Source: Candidatus Kaelpia aquatica
GTDB taxonomy: Bacteria > Omnitrophota > Gorgyraeia > Kaelpiales > Kaelpiaceae
Assembly: GCA_030765335.1 (NCBI GenBank)
Contig: JAVCCU010000025.1
Location: 6,784 to 70,783, forward strand
Direction of reading: 5' to 3'
Length of the DNA: 64,000 nt
Below the pieces are notes generated by a model that was not told the DNA's origin, made no database searches, and worked only from the letters and a program-made list of their open reading frames with translations. Positions 27,861-45,323 of the stretch are shown here, piece after piece. The position numbers were made by a program, and so were the translations under genes. Position 1 is the stretch's first letter. Every line of letters starts with the position of its first letter.

Positions 27861-28009
27861 ATGAATAGAAAAAAGAAGATGTTTAAAACAAGGCAGCAAG
27901 AGTCTTTTTTTTATTCAATTAATAAAATCTTAATAAAAGATTTCATTAGCATTGTTGTTGCCTGCTCAATGCTTTTTGCTAATACTATCTGTTTGGCTGG
28001 CGATGAAGC
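27861..28009 (+). repeat. direct repeat copy 1 (149 bp) encoding the shared N-terminal leader
   Basis: Near-identical to 28738-28886. The differences cluster in one ~20 nt patch. Confidence 0.8.
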
Positions 28010-28745
28010 TGAGACAGTACATGCTGATGGTGTATTCACAACTATGCCTATGGCCCCTGCGGCCAGCGATCTTATGGGTGTATCTTTGATTGACCAGACA
28101 GAAATTGTTGCAATAGAGCGGGTAGGAGTATTGCGCATAGAAGAGTTTAATGTAGGTTTTCAAGTAACATATATGCTTAACAATGGTGCCAAGATGCTAC
28201 AAAGTTTAATCGTTTATCTTCCTATTAAGCGTGATGAAAATGAAGCGATAAGTGTCCCCGATGTCTATATCGAAACTCCTGAAATATCTGAAGCTGGGTT
28301 TCGTGGTGAATCTTGGAATATAAATCCTGGAGATGATTCTATTGGTTATCTTGAGATAGTAATTGTTAATAATGGAATTAACCTTATTACAGAGTATGCT
28401 CCGATTACTGATACGGCGATGGGTATTGAATTTACATATGATGGAGCTACGCGTGGCGTTTACAACCATGACCTTGATGATATTGATATGCTTAATCAAT
28501 GTACATCGATTGTGAAAACATTAAATTTCTTTCTCAATCTCGAAGATTTTGATAGCAACAGTGCTAGCCATAGCGTTGAAAATCCTTCGATTGATAATCC
28601 TTCGGTTGATAATGAAAGTAACTCAATTTTAGATCATTTTCAAACCTTTGCGTTGCGTTTTTTTCCTGCACTTTTTCTTGGAGGCACTTTAGCTTATGAG
28701 ATATATCTCCAACAGCAGCGTTGGATTAGGAGGAGTAATGAATAG
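27861..28745 (+). CDS. hypothetical protein with conserved basic N-terminal leader (MNRKKKMFK...ICLAGDEA)
   Basis: 294 aa. Shares its first ~50 aa almost exactly with the next gene. The rest is unique, with a PSIDNPSVDN repeat near the C-terminus. Confidence 0.55.
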   Translation: MNRKKKMFKTRQQESFFYSINKILIKDFISIVVACSMLFANTICLAGDEAETVHADGVFTTMPMAPAASDLMGVSLIDQTEIVAIERVGVLRIEEFNVGFQVTYMLNNGAKMLQSLIVYLPIKRDENEAISVPDVYIETPEISEAGFRGESWNINPGDDSIGYLEIVIVNNGINLITEYAPITDTAMGIEFTYDGATRGVYNHDLDDIDMLNQCTSIVKTLNFFLNLEDFDSNSASHSVENPSIDNPSVDNESNSILDHFQTFALRFFPALFLGGTLAYEIYLQQQRWIRRSNE

Positions 28746-28886
28746 AAAAAAGAAGATGTTTAAAGCAAGGCAGCAAGCATATTTTTTGTATTTAATTAAT
28801 AAAATCTTAATAAAAGATTTCATTAGCATTGTTGTTGCCTGCTCAATGCTTTTTGCTAATACTATCTGTTTGGCTGGCGATGAAGC
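28738..28886 (+). repeat. direct repeat copy 2 (149 bp) encoding the shared N-terminal leader
   Basis: Near-identical to 27861-28009. Confidence 0.8.
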
Positions 28887-31221
28887 AGTTGCGGATGTTG
28901 GAAAAACGGTTTTGCCGGAATTACGCGGTACCCTAGAAGATATTGCGGAATGTTTTGGTCGAGCAATAACCACAGATGATGTTACTGTAATCGAAAGAGG
29001 TGGAGAACTAGGTAACTTGCCATTTTTAAGTGAATTAGATTTACCTAATTATCTTAGTGAAGGTGCTCTCGGTAATTTACCTATTGAGATAAGGGACTAT
29101 AGTCTCGGAGACCTTAGTTTAAGTTCTATAGCTGGCATTGAAAGCAATCATCAGAGTACATTAGCGTGTACGAGAAATGGTGAACCAGAGTGGGCAATTA
29201 GGCGTAGCGTTAAAGATGGAGAAGTAAGCTTTACTGTTATGTGGGAAGAAGAGGGTGAGTATACAGAGTTGGCAGTTGATGCAGACGGCACTATAAGAAG
29301 AGTAATGCATGTAAGAACTTCTGGAGATTATAGAGGAGTATATGTTTATGAAAGTGATGATCCTGAAGGTTATGGACAGATTTTAATATCTGATTGGGAT
29401 AATTCAATGGCTAACCCAGCTAACCATAATCTCCCTTATACAGAAGAGGTTCAGGATAGATTTGATAATTATTTGGATTATCTGCCTTCTGTTGAAGAAT
29501 TTTTCAGCGATACGGCGACTTACATAGCAGAGACACCAGAAGAAGATAGAGTTAATTCCGATTTAAATGTTAGGGCAATTCCATACATTGTTTGGAATGA
29601 AAATATGGTAGATGATACTCCTGCTGATGCATTTGTGCACTCAGGGGGCACAGTGGTGTTTGCTCAAGTCGACATTGATGTATCTAAAGCGGAAGCTTTT
29701 AAATCAATCATGGATGAATTTTACAGATCTCTTGAGATTCTTGCAGGAGAAGAAGGAGGAGCAGGAGGAAGCGCAGTCGACCCTACTGTAGATGCTCAGG
29801 TAGCTTCTGAGTGGATAGGAGAATTTGCACATGATGCATTAGGAGAGGCTTTTGAAATATATGGAGTTGCAGGTGCTATGATGGCAGCCGTTCTTGATAC
29901 CTGGGCAGTTGCTACGAGTAGCTTTAGATTTTGTTTTGATTTTACCAAAGCTTATGAAACGTATACACCTGTAGTAGTTGATCCTGTGACCCTAAACTAT
30001 TACTTTGATACACCAGAAATTGATGCAACTCAGCCGCTGGATTTCAGTGATCAAGATTTTGTTGCGGGTCTATTCGGAGGCCATCTAGAAGCTGGCAATA
30101 TTGATCAAAGTGAATATGATGCCATTTTAGCGCAATATGAGTATTTCCGTCTTCTATCTTTGGATTATAACGATTCAGCTTTTGGTGAAGCTTTTGGTAC
30201 TCCAGTAGCATTCGATCCAGTTAATTATGGTGAACAGGTTGAGGTATATGTTAGCGATTTTAGAGATAATGGTAATATAGGTGCGCTAGAAAATCTTGCA
30301 GAAAGAATGGGACTGTATAAGTATGCATTTCTTACTTGGCTTGAGAAACGATATCCCCAGTTCTTGGTTGATGACGGCACTGCTATAACTGCAGGTCAGA
30401 TTAGTTTTTCTCCAAAATGGGCTCAGTTTGATGTGGCCGATGCGCTTGGTCTAGTAGCTACTATCTATACTCTTAGAGTCGAGGCGCTTAGCATGCTAGG
30501 AGGTGTATTAAAAGGAGCAGGTTGGGTTGCTAATAAGGCATCTTGGGTAAAGGTGGCTCAAGCACTAAATACATATTCCGCTTCTCTTAATGGAGCAGCT
30601 CTTACATATGCTGGATTTAGTGAATACGCCGCTCTCCGGGGTATAAGCGAGCACAAGATTTTAACAGCATTAGGCTTTGCCCCAGGGACAGGAGCTGCTT
30701 ACGGGCTTATAAGCAGGGCTGTATATTTCTCATTAGTTGGGCCTGCAACACAAGCTCTCAATGGCGATCCTATGCCTGAAACATTTCAGAGTTATCTTTA
30801 TGGTATTGGCGATCAGTTTGCAACCGGTGTTATATATTCGGGTATGTTTGGCTATGTTATGCCTCTTATGCAAGGGGGAGCTGGAGGTTCTATATTGCTT
30901 GCAAACTTAAAAAACCAAGCGATGTTTTGGGTATCAGAGATATATTTAGAAGAATACTTGCTTCAAAAAGCAGCAGAAACCATACATGATAGATATGATC
31001 CTAGGGGTTGGGATACAGCTGTTTTGTGGGATAAAGAATTTTATGGCAATTTGGCTGAAATATTTAATCCTTTGGAGATAATGATGTTGATTGGGACAGA
31101 TATAAAATCAGGCACTCATGGTGGAAGAAATACTGTACTAGCTGTGGGAGGTCTGTATGCTTTAGGATTAATAGTTGAAGGTTTGGAGCGAGCAACAGGC
31201 GTAAAGCTTTTTGGAGGTTAA
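28738..31221 (+). CDS. large hypothetical protein with the same N-terminal leader; Gly/Ala-rich hydrophobic C-terminal region
   Basis: Start at ATG 28738 (AGGAGG 4 nt upstream), overlapping the upstream gene's stop. About 827 aa. The C-terminal ~250 aa are rich in G/A with GxxxG-like motifs. Confidence 0.55.
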   Translation: MNRKKKMFKARQQAYFLYLINKILIKDFISIVVACSMLFANTICLAGDEAVADVGKTVLPELRGTLEDIAECFGRAITTDDVTVIERGGELGNLPFLSELDLPNYLSEGALGNLPIEIRDYSLGDLSLSSIAGIESNHQSTLACTRNGEPEWAIRRSVKDGEVSFTVMWEEEGEYTELAVDADGTIRRVMHVRTSGDYRGVYVYESDDPEGYGQILISDWDNSMANPANHNLPYTEEVQDRFDNYLDYLPSVEEFFSDTATYIAETPEEDRVNSDLNVRAIPYIVWNENMVDDTPADAFVHSGGTVVFAQVDIDVSKAEAFKSIMDEFYRSLEILAGEEGGAGGSAVDPTVDAQVASEWIGEFAHDALGEAFEIYGVAGAMMAAVLDTWAVATSSFRFCFDFTKAYETYTPVVVDPVTLNYYFDTPEIDATQPLDFSDQDFVAGLFGGHLEAGNIDQSEYDAILAQYEYFRLLSLDYNDSAFGEAFGTPVAFDPVNYGEQVEVYVSDFRDNGNIGALENLAERMGLYKYAFLTWLEKRYPQFLVDDGTAITAGQISFSPKWAQFDVADALGLVATIYTLRVEALSMLGGVLKGAGWVANKASWVKVAQALNTYSASLNGAALTYAGFSEYAALRGISEHKILTALGFAPGTGAAYGLISRAVYFSLVGPATQALNGDPMPETFQSYLYGIGDQFATGVIYSGMFGYVMPLMQGGAGGSILLANLKNQAMFWVSEIYLEEYLLQKAAETIHDRYDPRGWDTAVLWDKEFYGNLAEIFNPLEIMMLIGTDIKSGTHGGRNTVLAVGGLYALGLIVEGLERATGVKLFGG

Positions 31222-31225
31222 TAGA

Positions 31226-33154
31226 ATGAAGATTAATATGAGATATAATACAATTTTAATAATCACTATAGGGATGTTTTATACTATGGTTGCCTTAGAG
31301 TGTTCCGGGGCGGAGAATAATTTTTTAGATACATCTTCACTTTTCCGCTCTTTTGGCTCTGTTGTTCAAGCCGAGATTATGCTTCCTTTTAGTTCAGACG
31401 GTTCTGTTGTTGCAGATAATACTGAAAACGATGTTCCAGCAGAAGATTTGCTTTTTGCTTCAAATATAATCGAAATGTTTATAGAGGGTTCATCATTAGC
31501 GGATCTTGGCCTGGATGCATCCCAAGTCGAGCTCCTACAGTTATATTTTCCTGCATCGTTTGCTCTTATGCCATTTGCGCAAGAAAGGCCATTGAGTTTT
31601 TTGAACCCCGTCGTTTTATATGATGGCTCAAGACGCATTATTATAACTGAATCTATAGAAAGAGAGCCGATGCGTATTGATGATGCATGGGAAATGGAAT
31701 CCGTTAACGCTATCTTTGTTAATGTCAGGGATGTAGATGTTGATAGCGGGGCAATCATATACAGTACGTATGCATTTAAAGCCGAAGATTTTGACTTTTA
31801 TTATGGCAACAGCGTAGATGCGATTTTATCTTCTTTGGAGGGGAGAGTACCATATGCAATGCAATCTTACATATATAACCAGGATGATGGTTTATTTGAT
31901 GTAGAGGCTGCTTATTTTTCAGAAGCAGGAATCGACATTATTCAACAGGGAAGAGTATCACTTCATGAAGATGGTTTTGTTTGGTCTGCTGCTGAAGGAT
32001 CTTTTAAATTTTATTTTGATGAATCAAACAGTACGCTTAATATAGAAAATTATTTGCTTGATGAAATGATTAGTTCTACAGCTATTCATTGTGACGAAGA
32101 TTCTGGAAGTATAATAATAAAAGAAGGTGATTATGAAATCATCATATCTGATGTTGAGTTTTCACAATCTTTATACGATGGATCTATTGTAGCATATGGA
32201 GATGATGATGGATCAATACAAGATGGTGTATTTACTTATTATGAGATTAAGCATTGGACAACTATCATGAAGAATGATGAGTTGGTTGAATCTTGGTATG
32301 ACATATCTCATACTGCAAACGATTCTTCTTATAGAATTAAGATTTATTCTCAGAGCGCTGATAGTTCCTCCCCAGAATTTTATGCTCTTCAATATCAGGA
32401 AATAGGAGACGATGCTGCTTCTATTCGTAAATATGCTATTGAGCAAGACGAAGAAGAAGGCTTGTTGTATCGTAAGGTTTTTCATGTTTGGGATAGTTCC
32501 TATGCTCCAGGCAGTAGTTCTAGAATGTATTATATTGAAGATACGCCTGAAGATTGGCAAAATGCAAGCTGGTTTTTGCAAAGCGTTATCGATGAGCATT
32601 GTCAGCTTATATGTCAATCCGATACTGTTGTTTCTGCGGGAAAGGATGGTGATATTGTTATAACAAATAATGCATTTTACAACAGCGTCACTATAACAAG
32701 TGATTATGACGAGAGTATTCCTGGAGGGTTTCTTCAGCTTATAGAGAGTTACAGAGAATATCTATCCTCTAACCATCTTTTGAGTCGACCTGAGGTTGAA
32801 GAGGTTATAAATATAACCACTACCAAGGTGTTGTATCAAGATATTCGTTTGCCATATACGAGTCAGTTTTTAGAAATGATAGATAAAAATACAGGCTCAA
32901 ATCATCTTAGTAGTTTAGAAAATAAATCCGAGATTAAGATAAATATTGTCAATGAGGTTGCACGAGCATATCTAGAAAGAGGTATAAGTTTCTTTGGTTC
33001 TGCTTGGTCTTTACCTTCAGGGTTTACTCAGTTTTCTTTCGAATTTAGAAGCCTTATTCATAATACAGTTGTTCCTGAGTTGCAGGGCATGGTCCCTTAT
33101 GAATGGGATTATGACGAGGGGATACTAATTTTGTATCCTGATAGTGATAGTTAA
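31226..33154 (+). CDS. secreted highly acidic hypothetical protein
   Basis: Start at ATG 31226 (GGAGG upstream). Signal peptide MKINMRYNTILIITIGMFYTMVALECSGA. About 642 aa, D/E/S-rich, no recognisable domain. Confidence 0.5.
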   Translation: MKINMRYNTILIITIGMFYTMVALECSGAENNFLDTSSLFRSFGSVVQAEIMLPFSSDGSVVADNTENDVPAEDLLFASNIIEMFIEGSSLADLGLDASQVELLQLYFPASFALMPFAQERPLSFLNPVVLYDGSRRIIITESIEREPMRIDDAWEMESVNAIFVNVRDVDVDSGAIIYSTYAFKAEDFDFYYGNSVDAILSSLEGRVPYAMQSYIYNQDDGLFDVEAAYFSEAGIDIIQQGRVSLHEDGFVWSAAEGSFKFYFDESNSTLNIENYLLDEMISSTAIHCDEDSGSIIIKEGDYEIIISDVEFSQSLYDGSIVAYGDDDGSIQDGVFTYYEIKHWTTIMKNDELVESWYDISHTANDSSYRIKIYSQSADSSSPEFYALQYQEIGDDAASIRKYAIEQDEEEGLLYRKVFHVWDSSYAPGSSSRMYYIEDTPEDWQNASWFLQSVIDEHCQLICQSDTVVSAGKDGDIVITNNAFYNSVTITSDYDESIPGGFLQLIESYREYLSSNHLLSRPEVEEVINITTTKVLYQDIRLPYTSQFLEMIDKNTGSNHLSSLENKSEIKINIVNEVARAYLERGISFFGSAWSLPSGFTQFSFEFRSLIHNTVVPELQGMVPYEWDYDEGILILYPDSDS

Positions 33155-33320
33155 GTTAATGAGTAAAAAGGTTTTATTTGTGTATAGCCGTGCTCAGAAT
33201 TTTAGAAGAATCATTAGTCTCTTAGTGTACTTAGTGGTACAATAATTTCAAATTTAAAAGAAAAATTGAATCTGTATTGTTTATTGAATTTTGATATTTT
33301 TTTAGAACAATGATATTGTT

Positions 33321-34709
33321 ATGAAAATAAATGCATTATTTTTTGTTGCTATAGTTTGTTTTTTTATAAATTTAAAATTTGCTCATAGCTCCCAAAATAC
33401 TCAAGAATATAAAGTGCTTTTGGAAGAGTATGGTTTGAATTCATACCTCACGACAGATAATATAGATAGGTTGCAAGATTTTTCCAAATATGCAAAGTCT
33501 AAAGGAAAATTGCTAGACCTTTATCTGTTAAATTATTCTGAATTCCTAAAATTGTGTAAGAGCAATTTCTTTTTTACCATAGATGAAGAAGAGCCTAGTC
33601 AAGTATGCTTTTATGATAAAGAGATAGATGATATTGATAAACTCTACAATGCTTGTGGTGGATATATTGTTTCTCTCCCATTGGTAAATATAGTAGCACG
33701 GCATGTTTACCAAGATAGCAAAGGTAGTCTATCCCAAAATAACATTTTTGTAATATATCTTTTGCACGAAGGTGTCAATTTTTCTTTATTGCAACATTTA
33801 TTGGATAATATTATTGAAAAAGCAGGAGGGCCTTCTGCAGTTGTTTATATAGATGAGCTTGGGTTAATACCGGAAGACTCTGTCAATAGGTATAGCCAGG
33901 CTTACAAGATAAGCGAAAAAGAATCATTCGAAAAAATAAAAAATTCTCTTAAGAACGATATAAAATCAATAAGTATGGGCCATACTATTTATGATTCAAA
34001 CAAGCTTTATGCTCAGATATATAGCTATTTCGCAAAACATAAAATCGACTCTAATATGGAAGATCTTTCTTATGATAATTGGAAAAATATAGTTGCATTT
34101 GATAAGTTGAATTTATGGAGAAAAAGTGCGCGTTTGTTTTTAATGGGTGCGGTGAGAGCATGTATAGAATCTTCTCAAGAGTTTGTGTTTGGATTCATGT
34201 TGTACAATAATATAATGCGTGATGCTAATTTTTCAAATCAACTAAAAGCATTATTGTCTGATAAAAGTGGCACTACATTAATTACTATCCGTGGTCTTGG
34301 TCATTTTGGATTTGAAAAAAAATTGATAGAGGATGCAAATGTAAGTGTTTGTATTTTAGGCGACGAAGGAGACTCTTTCTTTACGCTAACAGCGCTCCGT
34401 GAAAGGTATATGATTTATCAAGTTAATGAAGTGATTTTAAGTAATGAAGAGGAAGATAGATTGCTATTAAATAGCGTACTTAGTTTTCTTATGTTTAATT
34501 ATTTGATAAAATATGGGATAGAAGACAATTACTATGATGCAATGAAAAGTACGATAGCATTATTAACGCCTCTATCTTTAGCACAGCTATATGCACTTCA
34601 AAGCAAACTATTTTATGAGTTGCAGGCAGGAAATTTCTCTAAAAATAATATCTATGAATTTATTTACAATTGGTGTAAAAATCAAACATTTATAAAAGAA
34701 GAGAACTAA
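33321..34709 (+). CDS. secreted hypothetical protein (very AT-rich gene)
   Basis: 462 aa. Signal peptide MKINALFFVAIVCFFINLKFAHS. Composition markedly more AT-rich than its neighbours. Confidence 0.5.
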   Translation: MKINALFFVAIVCFFINLKFAHSSQNTQEYKVLLEEYGLNSYLTTDNIDRLQDFSKYAKSKGKLLDLYLLNYSEFLKLCKSNFFFTIDEEEPSQVCFYDKEIDDIDKLYNACGGYIVSLPLVNIVARHVYQDSKGSLSQNNIFVIYLLHEGVNFSLLQHLLDNIIEKAGGPSAVVYIDELGLIPEDSVNRYSQAYKISEKESFEKIKNSLKNDIKSISMGHTIYDSNKLYAQIYSYFAKHKIDSNMEDLSYDNWKNIVAFDKLNLWRKSARLFLMGAVRACIESSQEFVFGFMLYNNIMRDANFSNQLKALLSDKSGTTLITIRGLGHFGFEKKLIEDANVSVCILGDEGDSFFTLTALRERYMIYQVNEVILSNEEEDRLLLNSVLSFLMFNYLIKYGIEDNYYDAMKSTIALLTPLSLAQLYALQSKLFYELQAGNFSKNNIYEFIYNWCKNQTFIKEEN

Positions 34710-34871
34710 TCCTTTGGAATTATTTTTGCATCACTCACCAAGTTTTATTAAGCAGTTGTTGTAATTATACGAACATAGGCTGGGTTTCGTTAAAAAAACT
34801 AAATCAAGTGATTCTATTGTTTTTTTTGTTTACTTTTTTACCCCCATAACTTTAAAAAGTAGTGATAAAAT

Positions 34872-34901
34872 TTGACAGCACTTATTTTGTATGGTACAAA
34901 T
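34872..34901 (+). promoter_or_regulatory. sigma70-type promoter TTGACA-N17-TGGTACAAAT
   Basis: TTGACA at 34872-34877 and TGGTACAAAT at 34892-34901, upstream of the PilZ gene. Confidence 0.5.
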
Positions 34902-34958: not shown

Positions 34959-35306
34959 TTGAACTACGATGGAATGGAAAGAAGGCAGTGGACTCGGGTC
35001 GATATGAATGTTCCCCTTAAATTCAGAGAAGTAGGTGAATTCAGCCGTTCTCCGCTTGATTCAGAGACAAGAGATATAAGTGAAGGTGGCATAAGATTTG
35101 CGACTGATAAGTTTCTTCCAAAAGATAGTAAGCTCGTTATAAACATAGATTTCCATGATATTCCAGCTGTTAAAGCAACTGCTAAAGTTTCTTGGTCGGT
35201 AAGAGATTCTCATACCAGCATGTATGAGATAGGTGTTGAGTTTGATACTATTCCTTCAGAAGCAAGAGTTCAACTTTCCAATATCGTCAGAAAAAACTTA
35301 AATTAA
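34959..35306 (+). CDS. PilZ domain protein (putative c-di-GMP receptor)
   Basis: 115 aa. RRQWTRV (RxxxR) and DISEGGIRF (DxSxGG) PilZ motifs. TTG start 7 nt after AAGGAG. Confidence 0.7.
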   Translation: MNYDGMERRQWTRVDMNVPLKFREVGEFSRSPLDSETRDISEGGIRFATDKFLPKDSKLVINIDFHDIPAVKATAKVSWSVRDSHTSMYEIGVEFDTIPSEARVQLSNIVRKNLN

Positions 35307-36334
35307 GATCTAGATCTATTCTTTCTCTCTAACTCTTTTTTCATCTCCAACTCTTTCAGTCTTTTTCTTCTATCCAAATCGTATTTGTCTATTTTCTTAT
35401 TCAAAGCCTGGCGAGATATTCCAAGCAGATTTGCAACCTTAGATTTATTCCACTTAAGTTCATATAGTATCTCAGTCAATATCTTCTGTTCATATATCTC
35501 AACTACGCCTTTAAGCGTCTTATCTTTTACTGCCACTAGTTTAAGGTTTACTCCTCCAGACCTTAACTTTTCAGACAGGTCGCTGGGCAGTATATGAGGC
35601 CCCTCTGATAGTATTACAGCTCTCTCTATCTCATGCTCTAATTCTCGTATATTGCCCGGCCAGTCATACTCTAGGAGATATTTTATTGCATCTGGCACCA
35701 TGTTTTTTATGGATTTCTTATCATTCTTATCGGCATATAGTCGCAGGAAATGCTCTGCTAAGACCGGGATGTCGTCTCTCTTGTCTCTTAGCGGTGGAAT
35801 TGGGATATCTATGACACAAAGCCTGTAAAAGAGGTCTCTTCTAAACCCGCCTCTCTCTACCTCTTTTTCCAGATTTCTATTTGTTGCTGCTACTATTCTT
35901 ACATCTACAGATATATCACTTGTTGCTCCGACTCTCTTTATAGTCCCTTCCTGTAAGACTCTTAAGAGCTTAGATTGCAGGCCTGGTGAAACCTCGCTTA
36001 CTTCATCTAAAAAGAAGGTTCCTTTATCGGCTGCTTCAAATAAACCTTTCTTCTCAGCTATTGCTCCGGTAAATGAGCCTCTGATATGACCGAATAGTTC
36101 TGATTCAAGTAATGTCTCAGTTAGGGCTGAGCAGTTAACAGCTATAAAAGGAGCATTTCTTCTTTTGGAGTGATAATGAAGCGCTTTAGCGATCAGCTCT
36201 TTACCTGTTCCTGTCTCACCTCTTATTAAAATCGTACTGTTTGTATTTACAACCTTTTCCATGATTCTGTAGACTTCTTTCATGTGACTGTTTGTACCTA
36301 TTATCTCTGGAAATGGATTCTGATATTCTTCCAT
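35303..36334 (-). CDS. sigma-54-dependent transcriptional activator (AAA+ and Fis-type HTH only; no N-terminal receiver/sensor domain)
   Basis: 343 aa. GETGTGKE Walker A, ESELFGH, the GAFTGA-region variant GSFTGA and a C-terminal HTH. The stop codon overlaps the PilZ gene stop convergently. Confidence 0.85.
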   Translation of the reverse strand: MEEYQNPFPEIIGTNSHMKEVYRIMEKVVNTNSTILIRGETGTGKELIAKALHYHSKRRNAPFIAVNCSALTETLLESELFGHIRGSFTGAIAEKKGLFEAADKGTFFLDEVSEVSPGLQSKLLRVLQEGTIKRVGATSDISVDVRIVAATNRNLEKEVERGGFRRDLFYRLCVIDIPIPPLRDKRDDIPVLAEHFLRLYADKNDKKSIKNMVPDAIKYLLEYDWPGNIRELEHEIERAVILSEGPHILPSDLSEKLRSGGVNLKLVAVKDKTLKGVVEIYEQKILTEILYELKWNKSKVANLLGISRQALNKKIDKYDLDRRKRLKELEMKKELERKNRSRS

Positions 36335-36336
36335 AC

Positions 36337-37683
36337 TTAACTCCTCCTTAACTTTGTAGGCAGTATTTTAAGTCTTTCTCTGTATTTAGCTACTGTCCTT
36401 CTTGCAATAGTGATTCCATCCTCTTTCAAAAGCTGCGTAATCTTATTGTCGCTAAGAGGTTTCTTGGAATCTTCCGCTACAACTATATCTTTTATCTTCT
36501 CCTTGATTAATTTACTTGAAATGCCTTTCACATTGCTTGAGAAGAAATCTCTTAATTCAAATATCCCAGAAGGTGTATCGATATATTTGCCATTTACAGT
36601 CCTTGAGATTGTGGATTCATCTAATCCAGTGCTCTCTGAAACCCTATTTAGAGTTAAGGGTTTGAGTCCGGCCTTTCCCTTTTTAAAGAACTCTTTCTGG
36701 TGATTTATAATAAAATCAGTAATTTTGATTATAGTTTTTCCTCTCTGCTCCATTGCCTGAATAAGCTCTTTCGTTGTTTTAAGCTTATCTTTAAGGTATC
36801 TCTTTGTCTCTTCAGGCGTTGAGGGATCCTTTAATATCTTAAGATACTGCTTATTTATCCTTATTTTTGGAATATCTCTCTTATTGGTTCTAATCTGATA
36901 TTTGCCGTCTGGTGCTATATCTAAAAATACTTCTGGTATTGCATAGTTGGGGAATGCGCTAGTATAATTTCTGCCTGGTTTTGGATCCAAGCTTTTCAGC
37001 ATCTTTAAGAACTCTTCCATCTTCTTATCGGTTATCTTTAGCTCTTTCTCTATCTTCTTGTAATTATGTGTGGCAAGCTCCTCCAGGAACCGCTCTATTA
37101 TCTGCTGGAATATTTTTTCTTTTAACCCTTTCCTTGCAAGCTGTATGGTTAGACATTCTTTTAGATCTCTGGCTCCGATTCCAGCAGGTTCAAAATCCTG
37201 AACTATTTTTAAAATTTGTTCACATTTTTTATTTGAAACTTTTAATTTCTCGGCTATCTCAAGCAGGGCTATTTCAAGATATCCGTTGGGGTTTAAATTT
37301 CCTATTATCTCTTCACCTATTAAAAGATTATTAACGCTTATCCTCTGCATATGGAGCTGTTTTAAGAGGTGTTCTTGGAGTGTCTCAGGTTTTGTGACTA
37401 GACTTTCAATGTGCGCTCTTTTTTTAGCGTCTTCCTGACCAAACTTTTCAGACCTCTTCTCCCAGATATTGTCTTCTTGAAATTCAAATTTCTCTTCATC
37501 GGGTATCTCGGGTACTTTCTCTTCTTCGATCTCAAGAAGCGGGTTCTCTTCGAACTCTTCTTCTAGTTTTTCTTTAAGCTCTGTGATTGGCACTTGAAGA
37601 AGGTTTAATAGCTGCCAGAATTGAGGCAACAGCTTAAGTTTTAGCGCCAAGTGCTGTTCAAGGCGGGGGATCATTCTTTCCAT
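36337..37683 (-). CDS. rpoN: RNA polymerase sigma-54 factor
   Basis: 448 aa. C-terminal RpoN box ARRTVAKYR and an acidic region I/II. Confidence 0.9.
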   Translation of the reverse strand: MERMIPRLEQHLALKLKLLPQFWQLLNLLQVPITELKEKLEEEFEENPLLEIEEEKVPEIPDEEKFEFQEDNIWEKRSEKFGQEDAKKRAHIESLVTKPETLQEHLLKQLHMQRISVNNLLIGEEIIGNLNPNGYLEIALLEIAEKLKVSNKKCEQILKIVQDFEPAGIGARDLKECLTIQLARKGLKEKIFQQIIERFLEELATHNYKKIEKELKITDKKMEEFLKMLKSLDPKPGRNYTSAFPNYAIPEVFLDIAPDGKYQIRTNKRDIPKIRINKQYLKILKDPSTPEETKRYLKDKLKTTKELIQAMEQRGKTIIKITDFIINHQKEFFKKGKAGLKPLTLNRVSESTGLDESTISRTVNGKYIDTPSGIFELRDFFSSNVKGISSKLIKEKIKDIVVAEDSKKPLSDNKITQLLKEDGITIARRTVAKYRERLKILPTKLRRS

Positions 37684-37728
37684 AATTTATTGGGTTTAAA
37701 ATACATTATCTTAAAAGTCTTTAAGTCC

Positions 37729-37905
37729 TTATTCAATAAACTCTTCATTGCTATTCTCTATTGCCTTAAGCGTCAGAGGGTTTTTTCTTGCCACTTCTGA
37801 TGAAGTATTACATTGGGAACAGGAGATTATCTCCCCGATTTCAGGTCTAAAATCAAGAATTATCTCTTCACCGCAAGCGGGACATATTGCAGTGAGCTCT
37901 TCCAT
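37729..37905 (-). CDS. LysW/ArgW-like amino-group carrier protein (zinc-ribbon; C-terminal Glu)
   Basis: Start at ATG 37905 (GGAGGA 6 nt upstream), 58 aa. CPACGEEIILDFRPEIGEIISCSQC...PLTLKAIE...EEFIE aligns with LysW along its length, including the acidic C-terminal tail ending in Glu. Confidence 0.55.
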   Translation of the reverse strand: MEELTAICPACGEEIILDFRPEIGEIISCSQCNTSSEVARKNPLTLKAIENSNEEFIE

Positions 37906-38090
37906 TCTTATTCCTCCTTTTGCTTGACTGGTTCTTATATTCAACATCCTTTAGTCTAACATAAAAATTGAGGGCTTCAAATAGAAATTAGCAGAGATTT
38001 GTTTAAATTCAGGTAAAACAGTTAAAACTTTAAGAGCACTACCCTTGATTCTCTTTACAAAATCTTAAATTAGTCTATAATTAACTCATC

Positions 38091-39383
38091 ATGCGTGACC
38101 TTAAGAGATTAATTTTAAAAAAAGATGCGCTAATTTCTATTATAGGGCTTGGCTATGTAGGTTTGCCTTTAGCTGTTGAGTTTGCAAAGAAGGGCTACAA
38201 TGTTTGCGGAATAGATATAGATAAAGAGAGAGTTAAAAGTATAAATAGAGGCAAGTCCTATTTAGTAGATGTAGATGATAAAATTCTCAAAACTTTAGTT
38301 AAAGAGAAGAGATTAAAAGCCGGGATTAGCTATAATGTTATTGCTAAGTCCGATGCTGTAATTATATCTGTACCTACCCCTTTAAGGAAGACCCAGGAGC
38401 CCGATATATCTTATGTTATAGCTGCTGCTGAGGAACTCAAAAAATATCTTAAGAAGAATACAATTGTTGTCTTAGAGAGCACAACTTATCCTGGAACAAC
38501 GGAGGAGATAATACTGCCTCTGCTCTCTAAGGGAGGCCTAAAGGTAGGGCGCGATTTCTACTTGGCTTTCTCTCCTGAGCGAATAGACCCGGCAAATAAG
38601 AGATATAATACGAAGAATATTCCAAAAGTTGTAGGGGGCTGCACCAAGAGATGTCTTGAAGTTAGTAAGGTGTTGTATGCTCAAGTTGTAGGAGAGGTTG
38701 TAGCTGTATCTTCTCCCAGAGTTGCTGAGATGGTTAAACTCCTAGAGAACTCTTTTAGGGCTGTAAATATAGCCTTAGCTAATGAGGCGGCTTTAATATG
38801 TCAAAGAATGGGAATAGATGTTTGGGAAGTTATAAAGGCAGCAGAGAGTAAGCCTTTTGGTTACATGCCTTTTTATCCCGGACCTGGTATCGGGGGCCAT
38901 TGCATACCGGCAGACCCGATGTATCTTGTCTGGAAATCACGGCTCTCTGGATATGAGCCGGATCTTATCCGCACAGCTCATAAGATAAACTCTAGTATGC
39001 CTCAGCATATTTTAAAGCTAGTCAAGGATGCACTTAAAGAAAGAAAGATAGCCCTAAAGTCTGCTAAAGTATTGATTGTAGGTGTAAGCTATAAGGCAGA
39101 TGTTAATGATATCAGGGAGTCTCCTGCTATAGAGATTATGCGGTTACTTGATAAGAGTAAGGTTAAAGTTGAATTCTATGATCCATTAGTGAAAGAGCTG
39201 AAATTAAAGAGTAAGAAACAAAAGTCCATTAATTTAAATACAAAAAAAATAGCAGAGCAAGACGCAGTAATTATTGCTACGGTTCACAGCTCGCTAGATT
39301 ATAATATTTTCAAAAAGGCAACTCTTCTTGTAGATACAAGAGGAGTGATAAAGTGGAAAGGTAAAAATCTAATTAGGATATAA
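38091..39383 (+). CDS. UDP-sugar (UDP-GlcNAc/ManNAc-type) 6-dehydrogenase
   Basis: 430 aa. N-terminal Rossmann GLGYVGLPLA and catalytic Cys region GGHCIP; WecC/WbpA-like. Confidence 0.85.
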   Translation: MRDLKRLILKKDALISIIGLGYVGLPLAVEFAKKGYNVCGIDIDKERVKSINRGKSYLVDVDDKILKTLVKEKRLKAGISYNVIAKSDAVIISVPTPLRKTQEPDISYVIAAAEELKKYLKKNTIVVLESTTYPGTTEEIILPLLSKGGLKVGRDFYLAFSPERIDPANKRYNTKNIPKVVGGCTKRCLEVSKVLYAQVVGEVVAVSSPRVAEMVKLLENSFRAVNIALANEAALICQRMGIDVWEVIKAAESKPFGYMPFYPGPGIGGHCIPADPMYLVWKSRLSGYEPDLIRTAHKINSSMPQHILKLVKDALKERKIALKSAKVLIVGVSYKADVNDIRESPAIEIMRLLDKSKVKVEFYDPLVKELKLKSKKQKSINLNTKKIAEQDAVIIATVHSSLDYNIFKKATLLVDTRGVIKWKGKNLIRI

Positions 39384-39384
39384 A

Positions 39385-40323
39385 ATGGCAAATTGGTTAG
39401 TTACAGGCGGCGCTGGATTTATAGGTTCTAGTATTGTAGAAGAGCTCTTAAAGCGGGGAGAGAGCGTTAAGGTCTTCGATAATTTTTCTACTGGAAAAAG
39501 AGAGAATCTCGTTTTCTCTAGCGATAATATCTCTGAAGTTATAGAAGGAGATATCAGGAATGTAGATTTACTTAAGAGTGCTTTTAAGGGAGTAGATTAT
39601 GTATTACACCAAGCAGCTATGCGCTCAGTGCCTAAATCTTTTCATAACCCAGGAGAGTATGACGAAGTCAATGTTAAGGGCACTATGAATGTTTTACTTA
39701 CAGCTAAAGAGACTGGTGTTAAGCGTGTTGTCTTCGCATCTTCTAGCTCTGTCTATGGAGAGAGAGAAGACTTACCCGAAAGAGAATCTGATCCACCCAA
39801 TCCACTCTCTATCTATGCTGCTACAAAGCTTAATGGAGAGTATTATTGTAATGTTTTCTCAAAGTTATATGGAGTTGAGACTGTTGTTTTAAGATATTTT
39901 AATGTTTTTGGTCCTAAACAGTCGCTAGAGAATAAATATGCGGTAGTAGTCCCTAAATTTATCAACTCTTTTATTAAAAATGAGTCTCCGCCTATATATG
40001 GAGATGGACTTCAAAGTAGAGATTTTACTTACATATCAAATGTTGTTAATGCAAATATTCTTGCAGCAACTACAGAAGGTGCGAGTGGTGTATTTAATAT
40101 TGCCGGAGGTGGAGCCAATACAGTTCTGGAGCTATTTGAGATTATAAAAGGTTATTTTAAAATTGAATTAAAACCTAAGTTTGAATCTTTGCGGATTGGT
40201 GACGTTAAACATACCCTTGCAGATATAACAAGGGCAAATAATATTTTAGGATATAGAGTAGGAGTTGATTTCAAAGATGGTGTTAAGAGAACTATAGAAT
40301 GGTTTAAGGAGAATACCGCATGA
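39385..40323 (+). CDS. NAD-dependent nucleotide-sugar epimerase/dehydratase (SDR)
   Basis: 312 aa. TGGAGFIGS and YxxxK (YAATKLNGE). Confidence 0.85.
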
Positions 40324-41261
40324 AAAGGGCTGTTGTTACTGGAGGTTGCGGTTTCTTAGCATCGTACCTATGCCAGAAACTAATTGAAGATGAATTTGAA
40401 GTAATAGCCGTTGATAATCTTATTACCGGGGATTTGAAAAATATAGAACAGATAAGCTCTAATCCTAGTTTTAAGCATATAAAACATGATGTCTCTAAGT
40501 ATATAGATATTCCAGGCGAAGTTGACTGGGTATTCCATTTTGCTTCTCCGGCATCTCCGATAGATTATTTGAATTATCCTATTCAGACTCTTAAAGTCGG
40601 AGCATTAGGTACTCATAATACTTTAGGTTTGGCTAAAGATAAGGGTGCAAAATATATGCTTGCTTCAACTTCAGAAGTTTATGGCGACCCGCTTGTAAAT
40701 CCCCAGCCTGAAGATTACTGGGGCAATGTTAATCCTATCGGGCCTAGAGGGGTCTACGATGAGGCCAAAAGGTTTGCCGAATCTATGGTTATGGCCTACA
40801 GCAGAGTGCATGGTATGGATACCAGGATTATAAGAATATTTAATACCTATGGCCCTAAGATGAGATATGATGACGGCAGGGTTGTACCTAATTTTATCGC
40901 TCAGGCATTGAGAGGGGAAGATTTGAGCATCTTTGGTGACGGAGCTCAGACTCGCTCATTTTGTTATGTGGATGATCTAATAAGAGGCATTTTAGCTCTT
41001 ATGAAAGTTAAAGAGCATGAGCCTGTTAATTTGGGAAATTCCCGGGAGCTGAAGGTCATAGAATTGGCTGACATTATTCTGGATATTACAAAGAGTAAGA
41101 GTAAGAAAATATTCTTACCCCTTCCTCAGGATGATCCTAAATTAAGAAGGCCTGATACAGCTAAAGCAAAGAGGTTACTTGATTGGAAAGCAGAAGTATC
41201 TTTAGAGGAAGGACTTGCTAAAACCATAGAATATTTTAAAGAAAGACTTTCTCTTGATTAA
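40320..41261 (+). CDS. UDP-glucuronate decarboxylase-like (UXS family) SDR
   Basis: 313 aa. [13 protein letters not shown]-terminus and YDEAKRFAE, typical of UXS/ArnA-decarboxylase-like enzymes. Confidence 0.8.
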
Positions 41262-42519
41262 CAAAATTAAAGGAGTATTCAAAAAACAGCAGCTCTATTC
41301 CCAGGCGACGATTCTATTTTTAGCTGCTTCTTTGGGCAATCTCTTTAGTCTATTGTATCATTTTTTTATGGTCCGGGCGCTTAGCCCTCAGGATTATGGT
41401 GTTATGAGCACTCTTTTTGCCTGCACCGCGTTTTTTGCTATGCCTACAGGAAATATTCAAATTACGCTTACCCGTTTTATAGCACGCTATCACGGTATGG
41501 GCTCTAAATCAGCAATAGTAAGGCTGCTTAAAGGTATCTCAGGAAGAATATTTCTTTTAGGTGCTATTGTTGCAGCGGTGATATTTATAGGTGCACAATC
41601 TATAGCTAACTATCTGCATATAGATAGTCTTATGCCAGTCTACAGTATGGCAGGTGTGGTTGTGGCCAGCTTATTATTGCCAGTTACTATGGCAGGCTTG
41701 CAAGGCTTGCAGCATTTTTTCTCTTTAGGTTTGAGTATGATCTGTATGAATCTAGGAAAACTTATATTGGCCGTTGTTTTTGTTTGGCTAGGTTTTGGTG
41801 TAACCGGAGCTTTAAGCTCTTTAACTGCAGGAGTGCTTATAGGCGCTATTATTGCTTTCGCGATTTTAAAAATCTCTATCAGAAATCTGAATTTCAAAAA
41901 AGATACTAATATAGACGTTAATTTCAGAGAGATATATCTTTATATTTTACCAGTTAGTCTTGCAACGCTATCTTTTGTGATGTTGACTCATTTAGACCTT
42001 ATCCTTGTTAAACATTTCTTTACCCCCCTTGAAGCAGGGTATTACTCTATAGCGCAGATGATAGGCAAGATGGTGCTATTTCTTCCGTCGGCGATATGTA
42101 TGGTTATGCTGCCAAAGGTTGCAAGCTCTCATGCTAAAGAAGAAGAGACGATAAGCCATCTTAAACACTCTACTATTTACATAGCAGCACTTGTTATCTT
42201 TGCGGCCTCTGTGATTATAGTATTTCCGGAACATATGGTAAAATTATTTACAGGTAAGGCTTATCCTCAGTGCTACAATTTAGTAAGACTCTTTGCTATA
42301 AGTATGGGGTTTTTTGCCATATGTTTTAATTTCCTGCTCTACTATTTATCTTTAAACAGGATAAAGCTTATGACCCCCTTCCTTATCGTATTGGTTTTAG
42401 AAGCGAGTTTAATATATTTATGGCATAATAGTCTTAGTCAGATATTGGGTATTGTTATAAGCGCTGCTGTTGTACTATTTTTAGCAAATATAATAATAAT
42501 TAAGAAAAATTTTACTTAA
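41254..42519 (+). CDS. polysaccharide biosynthesis protein / Wzx-like flippase (MOP superfamily)
   Basis: 421 aa with about 12 predicted TM helices. Sits in the context of sugar-nucleotide genes. Confidence 0.7.
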
Positions 42520-42587
42520 TTAAGTTGACTTAAAATAACTTTTCAAGTAAATTATTAACACTTAAGCAGAAATAAGGAGGTGTTTAG

Positions 42588-42881
42588 ATGGTAAAGTTTG
42601 TTGTGTTGATTTTAGGAGTTCTTTTTGCAGTATTGGGTGTCATAGGAGTAGTTGCTTGGTGGCCGAATTTTCTTATAGTATTAAAAGGTGGAGGCTGTCC
42701 TTTCTTGGCTTTCATTGGTGCTATTATGGCAATAGCTGCGGTAGGTGAAATTAGAGATGCTATAGCTAGAAAGAGAGAGGAAGAGAAAGAGCCTCAGGAA
42801 GAATCAAAGCCAGAAGCAGCTGAAACTCAAGAAGTGACAGAGCAGCAGGAAGCACCCCAAGAAGAGCCCAAACAAGAGTAG
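42588..42881 (+). CDS. small membrane protein with E/Q/P-rich acidic C-terminal tail
   Basis: 97 aa. Two N-terminal hydrophobic helices then EEKEPQEESKPEAAETQEVTEQQEAPQEEPKQE. Strong RBS AAGGAGG upstream. Confidence 0.5.
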   Translation: MVKFVVLILGVLFAVLGVIGVVAWWPNFLIVLKGGGCPFLAFIGAIMAIAAVGEIRDAIARKREEEKEPQEESKPEAAETQEVTEQQEAPQEEPKQE

Positions 42882-42902
42882 GTTAATTAAGATATGTTTT
42901 AC

Positions 42903-42936
42903 AGGGGGGTAATTTTAAACCCCCCTTTTTTATTTT
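42903..42936 (+). terminator. rho-independent terminator
   Basis: GGGGGGT-AATTTTAA-ACCCCCC stem-loop followed by TTTTTTATTTTT. Confidence 0.75.
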
Positions 42937-42942
42937 TATACT

Positions 42943-44352
42943 ATGAAAGTAGTAATCAAACACATAGAAGATCTTTATCAATTCTTAGATAACTCCGAGA
43001 TTTATCTGGTGGGTGGATTTTTGCGAGATCTAATCTTAGGCAAGAAAAGAGATTCTCTTGATTTTGATTTTGCCTCTTCAGGCGATGTTAAGTTAATATC
43101 TAAAAAGTTTGCAGAAAGTATAGGCGGGAGCTGGGTTAGCCTCGATGATTTTAATCGAATCTATAGGGTGGTAGTAAGAGAAGATCCTGTAGTTCAGTAT
43201 GACTTCTCTACCTTAAGAGGAGACGGCATAGAGGAGGATCTAAAGAGCAGAGATTATACTATCAATGCCCTAGGTCTTAAGGTAGAAAAAAAAGATCTAG
43301 ACACTAAAAATTTAATAGACCCTTGCGGGGGCTTGGATGACTTGGATAAAAAGATAGTTCGGGTTATTTCTGAAGATAATCTGCTATCTGACCCTCTAAG
43401 GATCTTGAGAGGGATGAGTATTGCTAGCTATCTTGACTTTGCTATTGAACCTCTAAGCTATGCATTGCTAAAGAAACATTCTGGTCTTATTAAAAGTATT
43501 GCCGGGGAGCGGATAAGCTTTGAGCTTTTTAGACTCTTTAAGGGCAGTTCTTCTTATAAACACGTTCAGACATTACATGAACTCGGGGTTTTAAGTATTA
43601 TATTGCCAGGTTGGGCAGGATTATCTAGTCCGGATCCCGGTCCCTACCATCATCTTCCGGTAGATCTTCACTCTATAGAGAGCTTAAAGCAGTTTGAGTC
43701 TTTGCTTGAATATTTAGCTGATAACTCAAGAGTTCAAGATTATTTAAATGAAAAGATAAGAGAGAATCGAAGAAGAGTTGAGATTTTAAAACTTGCAATC
43801 TTACTACATGATATCGGTAAAGGCCCTGCTTATTTTATAGACAGTGATGACAAGATAAGATTTACCGGCCATGAGAAGCTAGGCAGAGAGATGGTTGATG
43901 AAGTGGCTCTTAAGCTTAAGCTCTCTAAGAAAGAATCTACAATGATATCCGATATGGTTTATTATCATTTAAGGCCAGGCTGTCTTATTGAGTGTATCCA
44001 TGAATCTAAAAAAGCGAAATTCAGGTATTTTAGAGATACAGCTTCTGAAGCTGCTTCAGTTATGCTGCTCTCTATAGCAGACAAGAGTGCTACTTGCGGA
44101 GAGTTGTCCGACTTAGATGATATAGCTAACCATAAAGAGGTTTTGTTGGATCTAATTGAAGAGTATTTTGATAAAGGTGAGGAGATAATACCGCCTAAAC
44201 TGATAGACGGCAATGATGTAATGGAGGCCTTAAAAATAGAGCCGTCTAGAAAAGTAGGCCAGATTTTAAAAGAGATTCAAGAGAGACAGGCATTAGGGGA
44301 AATCAAAACCCGCGAAGATGCAATAGGGTATATAGGTAATATCAAGCCTTAA
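42943..44352 (+). CDS. cca: CCA-adding tRNA nucleotidyltransferase with HD domain
   Basis: 469 aa. Pol-beta NT head (LVGGFLRDLILG, DFDFAS) and C-terminal HD (LHDIGKG). Confidence 0.8.
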   Translation: MKVVIKHIEDLYQFLDNSEIYLVGGFLRDLILGKKRDSLDFDFASSGDVKLISKKFAESIGGSWVSLDDFNRIYRVVVREDPVVQYDFSTLRGDGIEEDLKSRDYTINALGLKVEKKDLDTKNLIDPCGGLDDLDKKIVRVISEDNLLSDPLRILRGMSIASYLDFAIEPLSYALLKKHSGLIKSIAGERISFELFRLFKGSSSYKHVQTLHELGVLSIILPGWAGLSSPDPGPYHHLPVDLHSIESLKQFESLLEYLADNSRVQDYLNEKIRENRRRVEILKLAILLHDIGKGPAYFIDSDDKIRFTGHEKLGREMVDEVALKLKLSKKESTMISDMVYYHLRPGCLIECIHESKKAKFRYFRDTASEAASVMLLSIADKSATCGELSDLDDIANHKEVLLDLIEEYFDKGEEIIPPKLIDGNDVMEALKIEPSRKVGQILKEIQERQALGEIKTREDAIGYIGNIKP

Positions 44353-44412
44353 ATTTGACGTATATCTAGACGTGTGGTATCTTTGATGTAAGGGAAGGGG
44401 CAAAAATCTATT

Positions 44413-44685
44413 ATGAAAAAGCGTATTTTATTTATTATGTTACTGCTTTTTTTATCTAGTATCTCATTGGATGAATTTCAGAATATTCCGCTGAATTGTT
44501 TCAGGAGATTGAGGGCAGATGGTAATATTAATTTTTATCAGATAGTCCAAAATATCTTAATGGATTTAGAAGGAAGAATTACAAATGTGGACAAGGTTGT
44601 TGTATTTGATGAGCTTCGTTACGGAGTCCATGGTGGTATTTCCTGGAAGACATTGCAAATATGTTTACTGATGAAAATCAAGTGA
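44413..44685 (+). CDS. hypothetical signal-peptide ORF, possibly the 5' part of a frameshifted gene continuing at 44661-45323
   Basis: 90 aa. Signal peptide MKKRILFIMLLLFLSSISL. The downstream ORF in another frame opens right after a stop at 44610-12. Confidence 0.35.
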   Translation: MKKRILFIMLLLFLSSISLDEFQNIPLNCFRRLRADGNINFYQIVQNILMDLEGRITNVDKVVVFDELRYGVHGGISWKTLQICLLMKIK

Positions 44686-45323
44686 TACGTGTAACCAATG
44701 TACCTGTAGATGAGAGTGGAATGATTGCATATCAAACGAATAGTAGTTTGGGGGTGATGTTTCCTGGTCAATTCCGAGTCTGTATAGGTGAAGAATATGC
44801 AAATAAAAGAGCAGATGTATTGTTTTCCAAAGACCAGGGTAATAGCATGGTAGTGTTGCGAGTTGAAATAGATGGACAAATTATTATTGATGAGACGATG
44901 GTTTCATATCTTGTGAATGAAAATGGAATCGAACTTTATGCCCCATCGTGCAGCAATAATGTATTTGGGGTAGAGCCTTTTCAGGATTATTTTTACTTTA
45001 GGTCTAGGAGTTCTGAAGGCGATAATGCCTTGTATATTGTAAATCAGCGTCTTTCTACCAAAGGGGGATTCATTCTTTTCAGTAGAACTTATGAGGAAAT
45101 ACTTTCAGATCAACTTGCTAATGCCGTTGTGGTTGTTAAGGTTGAGCGAGAATCGCAATCCGAGCATGATTTTATAGTTTCGGTGATCGTTGTTGAAGAT
45201 AAGGAAGGTAGGCCTATTTTTGATAAATTCGGCAAATCGATTGTATATCATTTCCGGGGTGTTTTAGAAAGAGATCGGTTTCTGAGCTACTCTCTGGAAT
45301 TAATCAAGGGGTCTGAGTTATAA
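44661..45323 (+). CDS. hypothetical protein (possible 3' part of a frameshifted secreted protein gene)
   Basis: 220 aa with no signal peptide of its own. Overlaps the preceding ORF by 25 nt in a different frame. Confidence 0.4.
   Translation: MFTDENQVIRVTNVPVDESGMIAYQTNSSLGVMFPGQFRVCIGEEYANKRADVLFSKDQGNSMVVLRVEIDGQIIIDETMVSYLVNENGIELYAPSCSNNVFGVEPFQDYFYFRSRSSEGDNALYIVNQRLSTKGGFILFSRTYEEILSDQLANAVVVVKVERESQSEHDFIVSVIVVEDKEGRPIFDKFGKSIVYHFRGVLERDRFLSYSLELIKGSEL

Follow-up and report, generated by a model that had tools for sequence, protein, structure and literature searches.

Introduction

Transcription from sigma-54 promoters always requires an ATP-driven activator, and in the PspF-PspA system of E. 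coli and the HrpR/S-HrpV system of Pseudomonas syringae this activator is a bacterial enhancer-binding protein (bEBP) devoid of a sensor and controlled in trans by an anti-activator. To our knowledge, the control of sensor-less activators is understood for few systems only (PspF, HrpRS). We likewise know of control of sigma-54 activators by cyclic di-GMP (c-di-GMP) only by direct binding (FleQ and relatives), and of an influence of PilZ proteins on a sigma-54 cascade only in indirect form (Borrelia PlzA). Elsewhere, the single-domain PilZ protein MapZ (PA4608) acts as an adaptor that binds CheR1 when loaded with c-di-GMP (PDB 5xly, 5y4r). The present analysis concerns a locus of Candidatus Kaelpia aquatica, of the phylum Omnitrophota, in which the genes for sigma-54 (rpoN), a sensor-less bEBP and a stand-alone PilZ-domain protein lie side by side. 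The whole stretch analysed, hereafter the window, comprises 64,000 nucleotides (nt) of contig JAVCCU010000025.1 (positions 6,784-70,783, forward), and all coordinates given for it are window-based.

Other described systems share single features with this locus. In Xanthomonas, the rpoN2-(vemR)-fleQ arrangement has rpoN transcribed together with a downstream bEBP (PMC8657755). The PlzA protein of Borrelia burgdorferi affects the Rrp2-RpoN-RpoS pathway, indirectly and through nucleic-acid binding (PMC8323883, PMC9974103), and in the RsiG-sigma(WhiG) pair it is an anti-sigma factor that is armed by c-di-GMP (PMC7005675). The genera Kaelpia and Saelkia were described from Ace Lake, Antarctica, in a paper without mention of sigma factors, PilZ or c-di-GMP (PMC8542988); no work on sigma-54, bEBPs or PilZ regulation in Omnitrophota was found in the literature searched. 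The locus reported here joins a sigma factor, its activator and a predicted second-messenger receptor in one conserved gene cluster. The best single hypothesis for this association, to which we give a probability of roughly 0.4, is that the PilZ protein is a c-di-GMP-dependent adaptor acting on the bEBP or on sigma-54.

The PilZ-bEBP-rpoN gene cluster

The PilZ-domain gene (34959-35306, plus strand, 115 amino acids) runs tail-to-tail into the bEBP gene (35303-36334, minus strand, 343 amino acids), which follows rpoN (36337-37683, minus strand, 448 amino acids) in an operon whose first gene is a small open reading frame (ORF) of the Zn_ribbon_LysW fold (37729-37947, minus strand, likely start at 37905). 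These ORFs and their domains had been described in an earlier, sequence-only reading of this DNA, and ORF and domain scans bore the description out, down to the overlapping stop codons at the convergent junction: the PilZ and bEBP ORFs share 4 nt (TTAA), 2 of which are common to both stops. Of the two operon gaps that it gave, the 45 nt between the zinc-ribbon ORF and rpoN are correct, and the 3 bp between rpoN and the bEBP gene measure 2 nt, with the ribosome-binding site of the bEBP gene (AGGAGG) falling within the final rpoN codons. It had also considered the placement of rpoN outside the lptB-rpoN-hpf-ptsN context atypical. This placement was found again in about 20 related loci, and neither the window nor the gene-called loci among them have lptB, hpf or ptsN beside rpoN. 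The rpoN product itself scores well above the TIGR02395 cutoff (417.7 bits versus 277.35), has its activator-interacting, core-binding and DNA-binding domains above cutoff (PF00309, PF04963, PF04552) and carries the RpoN box as ARRTVAKYR.

Pfam and NCBIfam scans of the bEBP placed a Sigma54_activat domain at residues 11-177 (PF00158, E=1e-69), AAA_lid_14 at 183-260 and the helix-turn-helix (HTH) domain HTH_8 at 279-318. As already proposed from the sequence, the AAA+ region begins at residue 11 and is followed only by the lid and the HTH; there is no N-terminal sensory domain and hence no built-in signal input. The catalytic and sigma-54-contact motifs are intact, comprising Walker A (GETGTGKE), Walker B (FFLDE), RRDLFYR and the sigma-54 contact loop GSFTGA, a GAFTGA variant in which the F and T are kept. 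The protein therefore combines the hallmarks of a sigma-54 activator with the sensor-less architecture of the PspF/HrpRS type. It falls below every NCBIfam equivalog cutoff, and orthology with PspF was rejected on its scores (TIGR02974, 278.5 versus 443.55; NF008622, 231 versus 529) and on the lack of psp genes nearby. A database search returned 36 clusters of orthologues, 319-341 amino acids long and 56-92% identical, with scores from 692 down to 405 bits; the homologue of Ca. Kaelpia imicola is 91% identical. Below these clusters the score drops sharply to generic bEBPs (from 356 bits down), most of which have about 410-550 amino acids with extra N-terminal sequence or domains, a few others being short and apparently sensor-less. 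In Omnitrophica bacterium 4484_49 (locus L007, 7350-8196) the bEBP is broken into ORFs of 204 and 82 amino acids and about 45 lid residues are missing, which reflects either an assembly error or a decaying gene.

The PilZ gene starts at a TTG codon placed 8 nt after AAGGAG, and its product scores 52.6 bits against the PF07238 cutoff of 22.5 (E=6e-14). Both ligand-binding motifs noted in the sequence-only reading are indeed intact, in the form of RRQWTR (RxxxR) and DISEGG (DxSxxG), and R9, R13, D39, S41 and G44 within them do not vary even in orthologues of 32% identity. An AlphaFold2 model built on a 72-sequence alignment reached a mean predicted confidence (pLDDT) of 89 and consists of a beta-barrel followed by a C-terminal helix; an earlier run on 11 close homologues (pLDDT 54) was set aside. 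Foldseek searches with this model gave c-di-GMP-bound PilZ structures as best matches (MotI/DgrA 5vx6, BcsA, PA0012, Alg44), and MapZ in its complex with CheR1 was matched at a TM score of 0.72-0.75 (0.75 for 5xly_B). With the RxxxR and (D/N)xSxxG motifs and the beta-barrel all in place, the protein is a predicted c-di-GMP receptor that would bind this ligand through its conserved residues. Close homologues are few in homologue searches. A profile search recovered about 28 clusters of orthologues plus paralogues, all of them single-domain. A second stand-alone paralogue lies in L014 (12924-13268; 114 amino acids, 29% identical), 5 kb from the bEBP-linked PilZ gene.

Conservation across Omnitrophota

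In species-representative genomes, the closest rpoN loci belong to Ca. Saelkia tenebricola, Ca. Omnitrophica 4484_49 and two bins labelled 'Planctomycetia', all of them metagenome-assembled genomes (MAGs) of Omnitrophota. In every orthologous locus fetched, rpoN lies directly upstream of the bEBP gene on the same strand (bEBP identity 55-92%; loci L005-L007, L012-L015, L017, L019, L023-L025 and L028-L034, plus short contigs of the window's species). The linkage to PilZ was followed with a metagenome scan using a PilZ profile, with tblastn and with contig look-ups, all of which agree. About 15 distinct lineages of PilZ orthologues were obtained, and the bEBP gene follows tail-to-tail in all 14 for which sequence extends past the 3' end, with a stop-to-stop distance of -8 to +61 bp (about 51 bp in L007). 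Every PilZ orthologue with enough flanking sequence thus adjoins the bEBP-rpoN pair, and the separation of PilZ from the bEBP with rpoN in its canonical context, which the sequence-only reading had named as the outcome that would speak against it, was not seen. This holds across considerable divergence, the orthologues reaching down to 32-42% identity for PilZ, 65% for the bEBP and 47-48% for rpoN.

The surroundings of the cluster are far less constant. While the PilZ-bEBP pair was retained, the gene next upstream was exchanged at least five times for PilZ and at least three times for rpoN. On the far side of PilZ are found uncharacterised secreted proteins, comEC, accD, small ORFs with a fructose-bisphosphate aldolase gene next, or Cofac_haem_bdg, and on the far side of rpoN a UDP-sugar dehydrogenase, a radical SAM protein, an extracytoplasmic-function (ECF) sigma factor, bamD or lptE; the flanks of rpoN are bamD-lptE-holA, UDP-sugar dehydrogenase, ECF sigma or radical SAM.

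In a neighbour-joining tree of the bEBPs, the PilZ-linked sequences form one monophyletic group (30 clusters), with the PilZ-less ones as its sister group (6 clusters), and PilZ was probably gained (or lost) only once. The ancestral setting appears to be that of L012, L013, L028 and L029, with bamD-lptE-holA divergent from rpoN-bEBP and comEC convergent on the other side. Since L014 keeps comEC next to PilZ and the PilZ-less sister group has comEC, the simplest history is a single insertion of PilZ between the bEBP gene and comEC, followed by strict retention. The cassette is best explained as a vertically inherited, lineage-specific sigma-54 unit of Omnitrophota. A 73-amino-acid ORF found downstream of the bEBP gene in L028, directly beside comEC, was considered as a PilZ candidate and discarded, as it has no PilZ similarity.

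Promoters and the search for sigma-54 sites

The PilZ gene has a promoter of sigma-70 type on the plus strand (34872-34900), recognised by reading the sequence and comparing orthologous loci: a TTGACA box (34872-34877), a 17-nt spacer and an extended -10 element TGgTACAAA (34892-34900). The sequence-only reading had called it a consensus promoter, which applies to the perfect -35 box, the extended -10 and its conservation, and does not extend to the -10 hexamer, where only 4 of 6 bases match; a simple promoter scanner did not call it. The layout of TTGAC[A/G] plus extended -10 recurs in all 12 upstream regions examined (the window and eleven loci), and TTGAC[A/G]-N14-15-TGnTAnAnn stands before PilZ in L005, L006, L014, L015, L017-L019, L021, L022, L025, L030 and L031. 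This conservation indicates that the PilZ gene is sigma-70-dependent, not sigma-54-dependent. The operon of zinc-ribbon gene, rpoN and bEBP has a sigma-70-type promoter as well (37953-37980, minus strand), made of TTGAAG, 16 nt that include TGt, and TAGACT, and its extended -10 version is conserved in 7/7 upstream regions examined (window, L004, L006, L007, L012, L013, L015). With conserved sigma-70 promoters in both units, control through sigma-54 autoregulation is unlikely.

In deeper PilZ-plus lineages, a palindrome CGATTT-N4-AAATCG sits between the -35 box and the extended -10 of the PilZ promoter (L014 at 8416, L024 at 4949, which is the same locus type as L015, L025 at 1577 and L031 at 7370). 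The loose pattern has no other match in these four loci; L007, L011 and L017 also contain it, though not at PilZ promoters, and it is lacking from the PilZ promoter of the window itself. The palindrome looks like a candidate repressor operator. The strong form TTGACA-N14-TGGTAYAAAT is common to several window genes (27130-27180 and 34872-34900), being probably the housekeeping promoter consensus of the organism and as such useful for annotating Omnitrophota MAGs.

The sigma-54 promoter pattern TGGCAC-N5-TTGC gave 33 matches against 28.6 expected, that is, chance level. The best sigma-54-like site of the window, TGGCATAAGATTTGC at 35087, lies inside PilZ, antisense toward the bEBP gene, and was judged a chance match; the -12 GC of TGGCATAAGATTTGC belongs to an Ala codon that none but the closest relatives share, and the site is accordingly not conserved. 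Another candidate, TGGAATTATTTTTGCA at 34715-34730 upstream of PilZ, was also set down to chance, since no other PilZ upstream region has it, those of L017, L018 and L019 included.

The first gene of the operon (PF21344, E=1.8e-9) has two possible starts. The ATG at 37947 is only 5 nt past the conserved -10 hexamer, and the ATG at 37905 is preceded by AAGGAGG, which makes 37905 the probable start and the product a protein of 58 amino acids with an acidic C-terminal tail that is not conserved among L004, L006 and L007. The name 'lysW-like' given to it earlier is right as to the Zn_ribbon_LysW fold; as a LysW/ArgW carrier it was rejected, with scores below the equivalog cutoffs (TIGR01206, 31.5 versus 53.2; NF041070, 31.7 versus 75) and C-termini that differ among orthologues, where carriers of that family have a conserved tail of EDWGE type ending in Glu, along with lysX/argX partners. 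The window holds classical argC, argJ and argB genes. The zinc-ribbon gene was found by tblastn in L004-L007 and L017 (rpoN at least 61% identical), with no match in the other loci screened, and a Zn_ribbon_LysW gene was also called in L034; its L006 copy is broken by a stop codon.

Weighing the explanations

The adaptor role of PilZ is favoured by the conserved linkage together with the invariant ligand-binding residues and the MapZ-like single-domain fold. In this reading, a housekeeping-type promoter drives one operon for sigma-54, the activator reduced to AAA+ and HTH and, in some lineages, the zinc-ribbon protein, and one subclade has probably acquired, tail-to-tail between the bEBP gene and comEC, a single-domain PilZ gene under a strong sigma-70 promoter of its own. 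Once loaded with c-di-GMP, PilZ would attach to the activator (or to sigma-54) and tune its ATPase and remodelling activity, giving an otherwise constitutive sigma-54 system a second-messenger input; the effect could be inhibition or activation. The more specific idea that c-di-GMP-loaded PilZ is a trans-regulator (anti-activator or co-activator) of the sensor-less bEBP or of sigma-54, completing a self-contained three-gene unit of sigma factor, motor and second messenger in these small-genome Omnitrophota, seems to us rather unlikely as a whole. The compact c-di-GMP-responsive sigma-54 module of the sequence-only reading is thus partly supported, and the anti-activator mechanism that it attached to PilZ remains pure conjecture.

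Alternatively, the adjacency may be inherited and non-functional. The activator would then be constitutive, its regulon would be set by the expression level of rpoN-bEBP, and PilZ would serve another target, staying by the bEBP gene only for want of intergenic DNA where a rearrangement could part them. We regard this explanation as a serious one, nearly as probable as the adaptor role, and several observations that weigh against an adaptor role of PilZ speak for it. In L012, L013, L028 and L029, whose bEBPs are 55-62% identical to that of the window, PilZ is absent and comEC adjoins the bEBP gene; this sister subclade has the identical operon of rpoN and sensor-less bEBP, so PilZ is dispensable for the module. 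The confinement of PilZ to one monophyletic group traces the association to a single event. All of the observed rearrangements, at least five, fell in the 80-250 bp spacer on the 5' side of PilZ and none in the short stop-to-stop interval, a distribution that by our own estimate would be expected about 40% of the time from target size alone; because a 3'-3' spacer of nearly zero length makes a neutral break there less likely, retention is weak evidence for selection. Furthermore, the profile matches reveal a family of further stand-alone PilZ paralogues in the phylum, and the rpoN operon promoter is conserved and of housekeeping type. Other points bear on the adaptor role more generally. Being convergent, PilZ and the bEBP gene are not co-transcribed. 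The aligned bEBPs of the PilZ-plus and PilZ-minus clades are told apart by only 5 mild substitutions, too few to be informative. No fusion of the two was seen, PF00158 occurring in 0/78 PilZ matches and PF07238 in 0/120 of the best-scoring bEBP matches listed, and no published PilZ-bEBP partnership was found in the literature searched. The search for sigma-54 promoters that the sequence-only reading had suggested gave no conserved site near the cluster, nor any conserved intergenic one of at least 12 bits over about 200 kb of related loci. What an inert adjacency accounts for less readily is that PilZ has been kept at its exact position, with no loss or move, in every sampled informative locus, although rpoN is there as low as 47% identical and PilZ 32-42%, and although both outer flanks turned over repeatedly in those same lineages.

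Convergent transcription might also couple the two units in cis, through interference in both directions or through antisense control over how much sigma-54 and activator is made, instead of by a protein-protein switch. With no room for terminators between the units, transcription from the PilZ promoter would run antisense into the bEBP gene and rpoN, and the reverse. This agrees with stop codons that overlap or lie at most 61 bp apart in all loci, with the conserved PilZ promoter (perfect -35 box, extended -10) and with the outcome of the terminator search, which predicted no intrinsic terminator at the window junction and, in relatives with spacers of 52-61 bp, turned up no hairpin followed by a U-tract that was convincing. 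Rho-dependent terminators or terminators within coding regions are possible, however, and cis coupling does not account for the convergent partner being a PilZ protein whose ligand-binding residues are strictly conserved. In the sister clade, comEC holds the same convergent position. We consider cis coupling improbable. Still less credit can be given to the possibility that the activator itself senses c-di-GMP, as FleQ, FlrA and VpsR do, leaving PilZ irrelevant to it. The AAA+ domain is about 50% identical to that of FleQ, and structures of FleQ type rank high among its matches in the PDB. The comparison was made with the FleQ-type criterion of linker Arg R144, post-Walker-A R185/N186 and R334, residues whose c-di-GMP contact roles have been described (PMC10723142); R144, R185 and N186 of FleQ align with P9, K50 and A51 of the bEBP. 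The contact residues are therefore not conserved, and direct sensing by the activator was rejected as very improbable. The preferred reading places the c-di-GMP input in PilZ as an adaptor.

If PilZ does act as proposed, no PilZ-type adaptor would have been shown before it to gate transcription from sigma-54 promoters. Its action would be a new route from the second messenger to sigma-54 and would open a first entry into the study of gene regulation in the uncultured phylum Omnitrophota. Leaving PilZ aside, the rpoN-bEBP operon, invariant as it is, defines a compact, testable 'minimal sigma-54 system'.

Other features of the window

A tandem HD-GYP-type gene (10797-12011, plus strand, 404 amino acids) encodes two HD_5 stretches, the first with HD...GYP and the second with HD...GYH, which are the motifs of a putative HD-GYP phosphodiesterase. 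Judged by these motifs, its presence shows probable cyclic-dinucleotide turnover in the organism. It had been brought into connection with the cluster as a gene encoded 24 kb upstream; the gene is real and lies 23-24 kb away, within an etfB-etfA-HDGYP-uppP-argCJB run, and no positional or regulatory link to the PilZ-bEBP-rpoN cluster was found.

Upstream of PilZ, a run of five plus-strand ORFs (27200-34709; 201, 294, 841, 647 and 462 amino acids) has no Pfam or NCBIfam match. The N-terminus of the 462-amino-acid protein, the only one inspected among the five, resembles a signal peptide. Homologues of this protein lie near PilZ in L006, L017 and L018, where the immediate PilZ neighbour is a separate protein of about 600 amino acids.

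The bamD-lptE-holA...S20-murJ-uvrC block adjoins rpoN in L012, L013, L015, L029, L031 and L032; L028 lacks bamD and has lptE directly beside rpoN. In the window this bamD-lptE-holA...uvrC block is found at 51709-63266 (bamD-lptE at 51.7-54 kb), 14 kb from rpoN. The DNA in between (38091-51607) carries nucleotide-sugar/polysaccharide genes, a CCA-adding enzyme, tRNA-Ser, a Fic gene, a radical SAM gene and feoB, and looks like a lineage-specific insertion or rearrangement. Within it, about 1 kb downstream of tRNA-Ser (45396-45487), a 163-nt direct repeat of 80% identity (46438-46600 and 48694-48856) encloses a Fic/DOC toxin-like gene (47214-48332), and these repeats may mark the boundaries of an integrated cassette. 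An Rfam scan of the window gave no matches.

Comparison with known systems

The activator resembles PspF and HrpR/S in consisting of AAA+ and HTH only and in having a small candidate regulator encoded alongside, and the trans logic proposed for it matches that of PspA-PspF and HrpV-HrpS. It differs from them in not being an orthologue and in being co-operonic with rpoN; moreover, the candidate regulator, a PilZ protein, is unrelated to PspA and HrpV. The pairing of rpoN with a downstream bEBP outside the lptB-rpoN-hpf-ptsN context is shared with rpoN2-(vemR)-fleQ of Xanthomonas. There, however, rpoN2 is a second rpoN copy located in a flagellar cluster, and FleQ has an N-terminal domain and binds c-di-GMP itself, whereas the bEBP described here has neither the N-terminal domain nor the FleQ binding residues, and no flagellar genes lie nearby.

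On the receptor side, the PilZ protein matches MapZ in type, with about 115-120 amino acids, a PilZ barrel with a C-terminal helix and intact RxxxR and DxSxxG motifs, in line with the TM score reported above. Sequence identity is only about 19%, though, and a bEBP or sigma-54 as partner would be new. As with PlzA of Borrelia, a PilZ-type receptor would influence the output of a sigma-54/bEBP cascade in a bacterium that has a small genome and few regulators. PlzA, however, has two domains (xPilZ-PilZ; PDB 7mie, which came up at rank 38 as a weak structural match), and its gene does not lie next to rpoN or rrp2. FleQ, FlrA and VpsR, on the one hand, and RsiG-sigma(WhiG), on the other, set precedents for c-di-GMP control of sigma-54 activators or of a sigma factor via a partner; no PilZ protein is involved in either case, and the residues for direct binding are absent from the bEBP studied here. 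An adaptor of PilZ type that targets a bEBP or sigma-54 would, if true, be a new combination of known parts.

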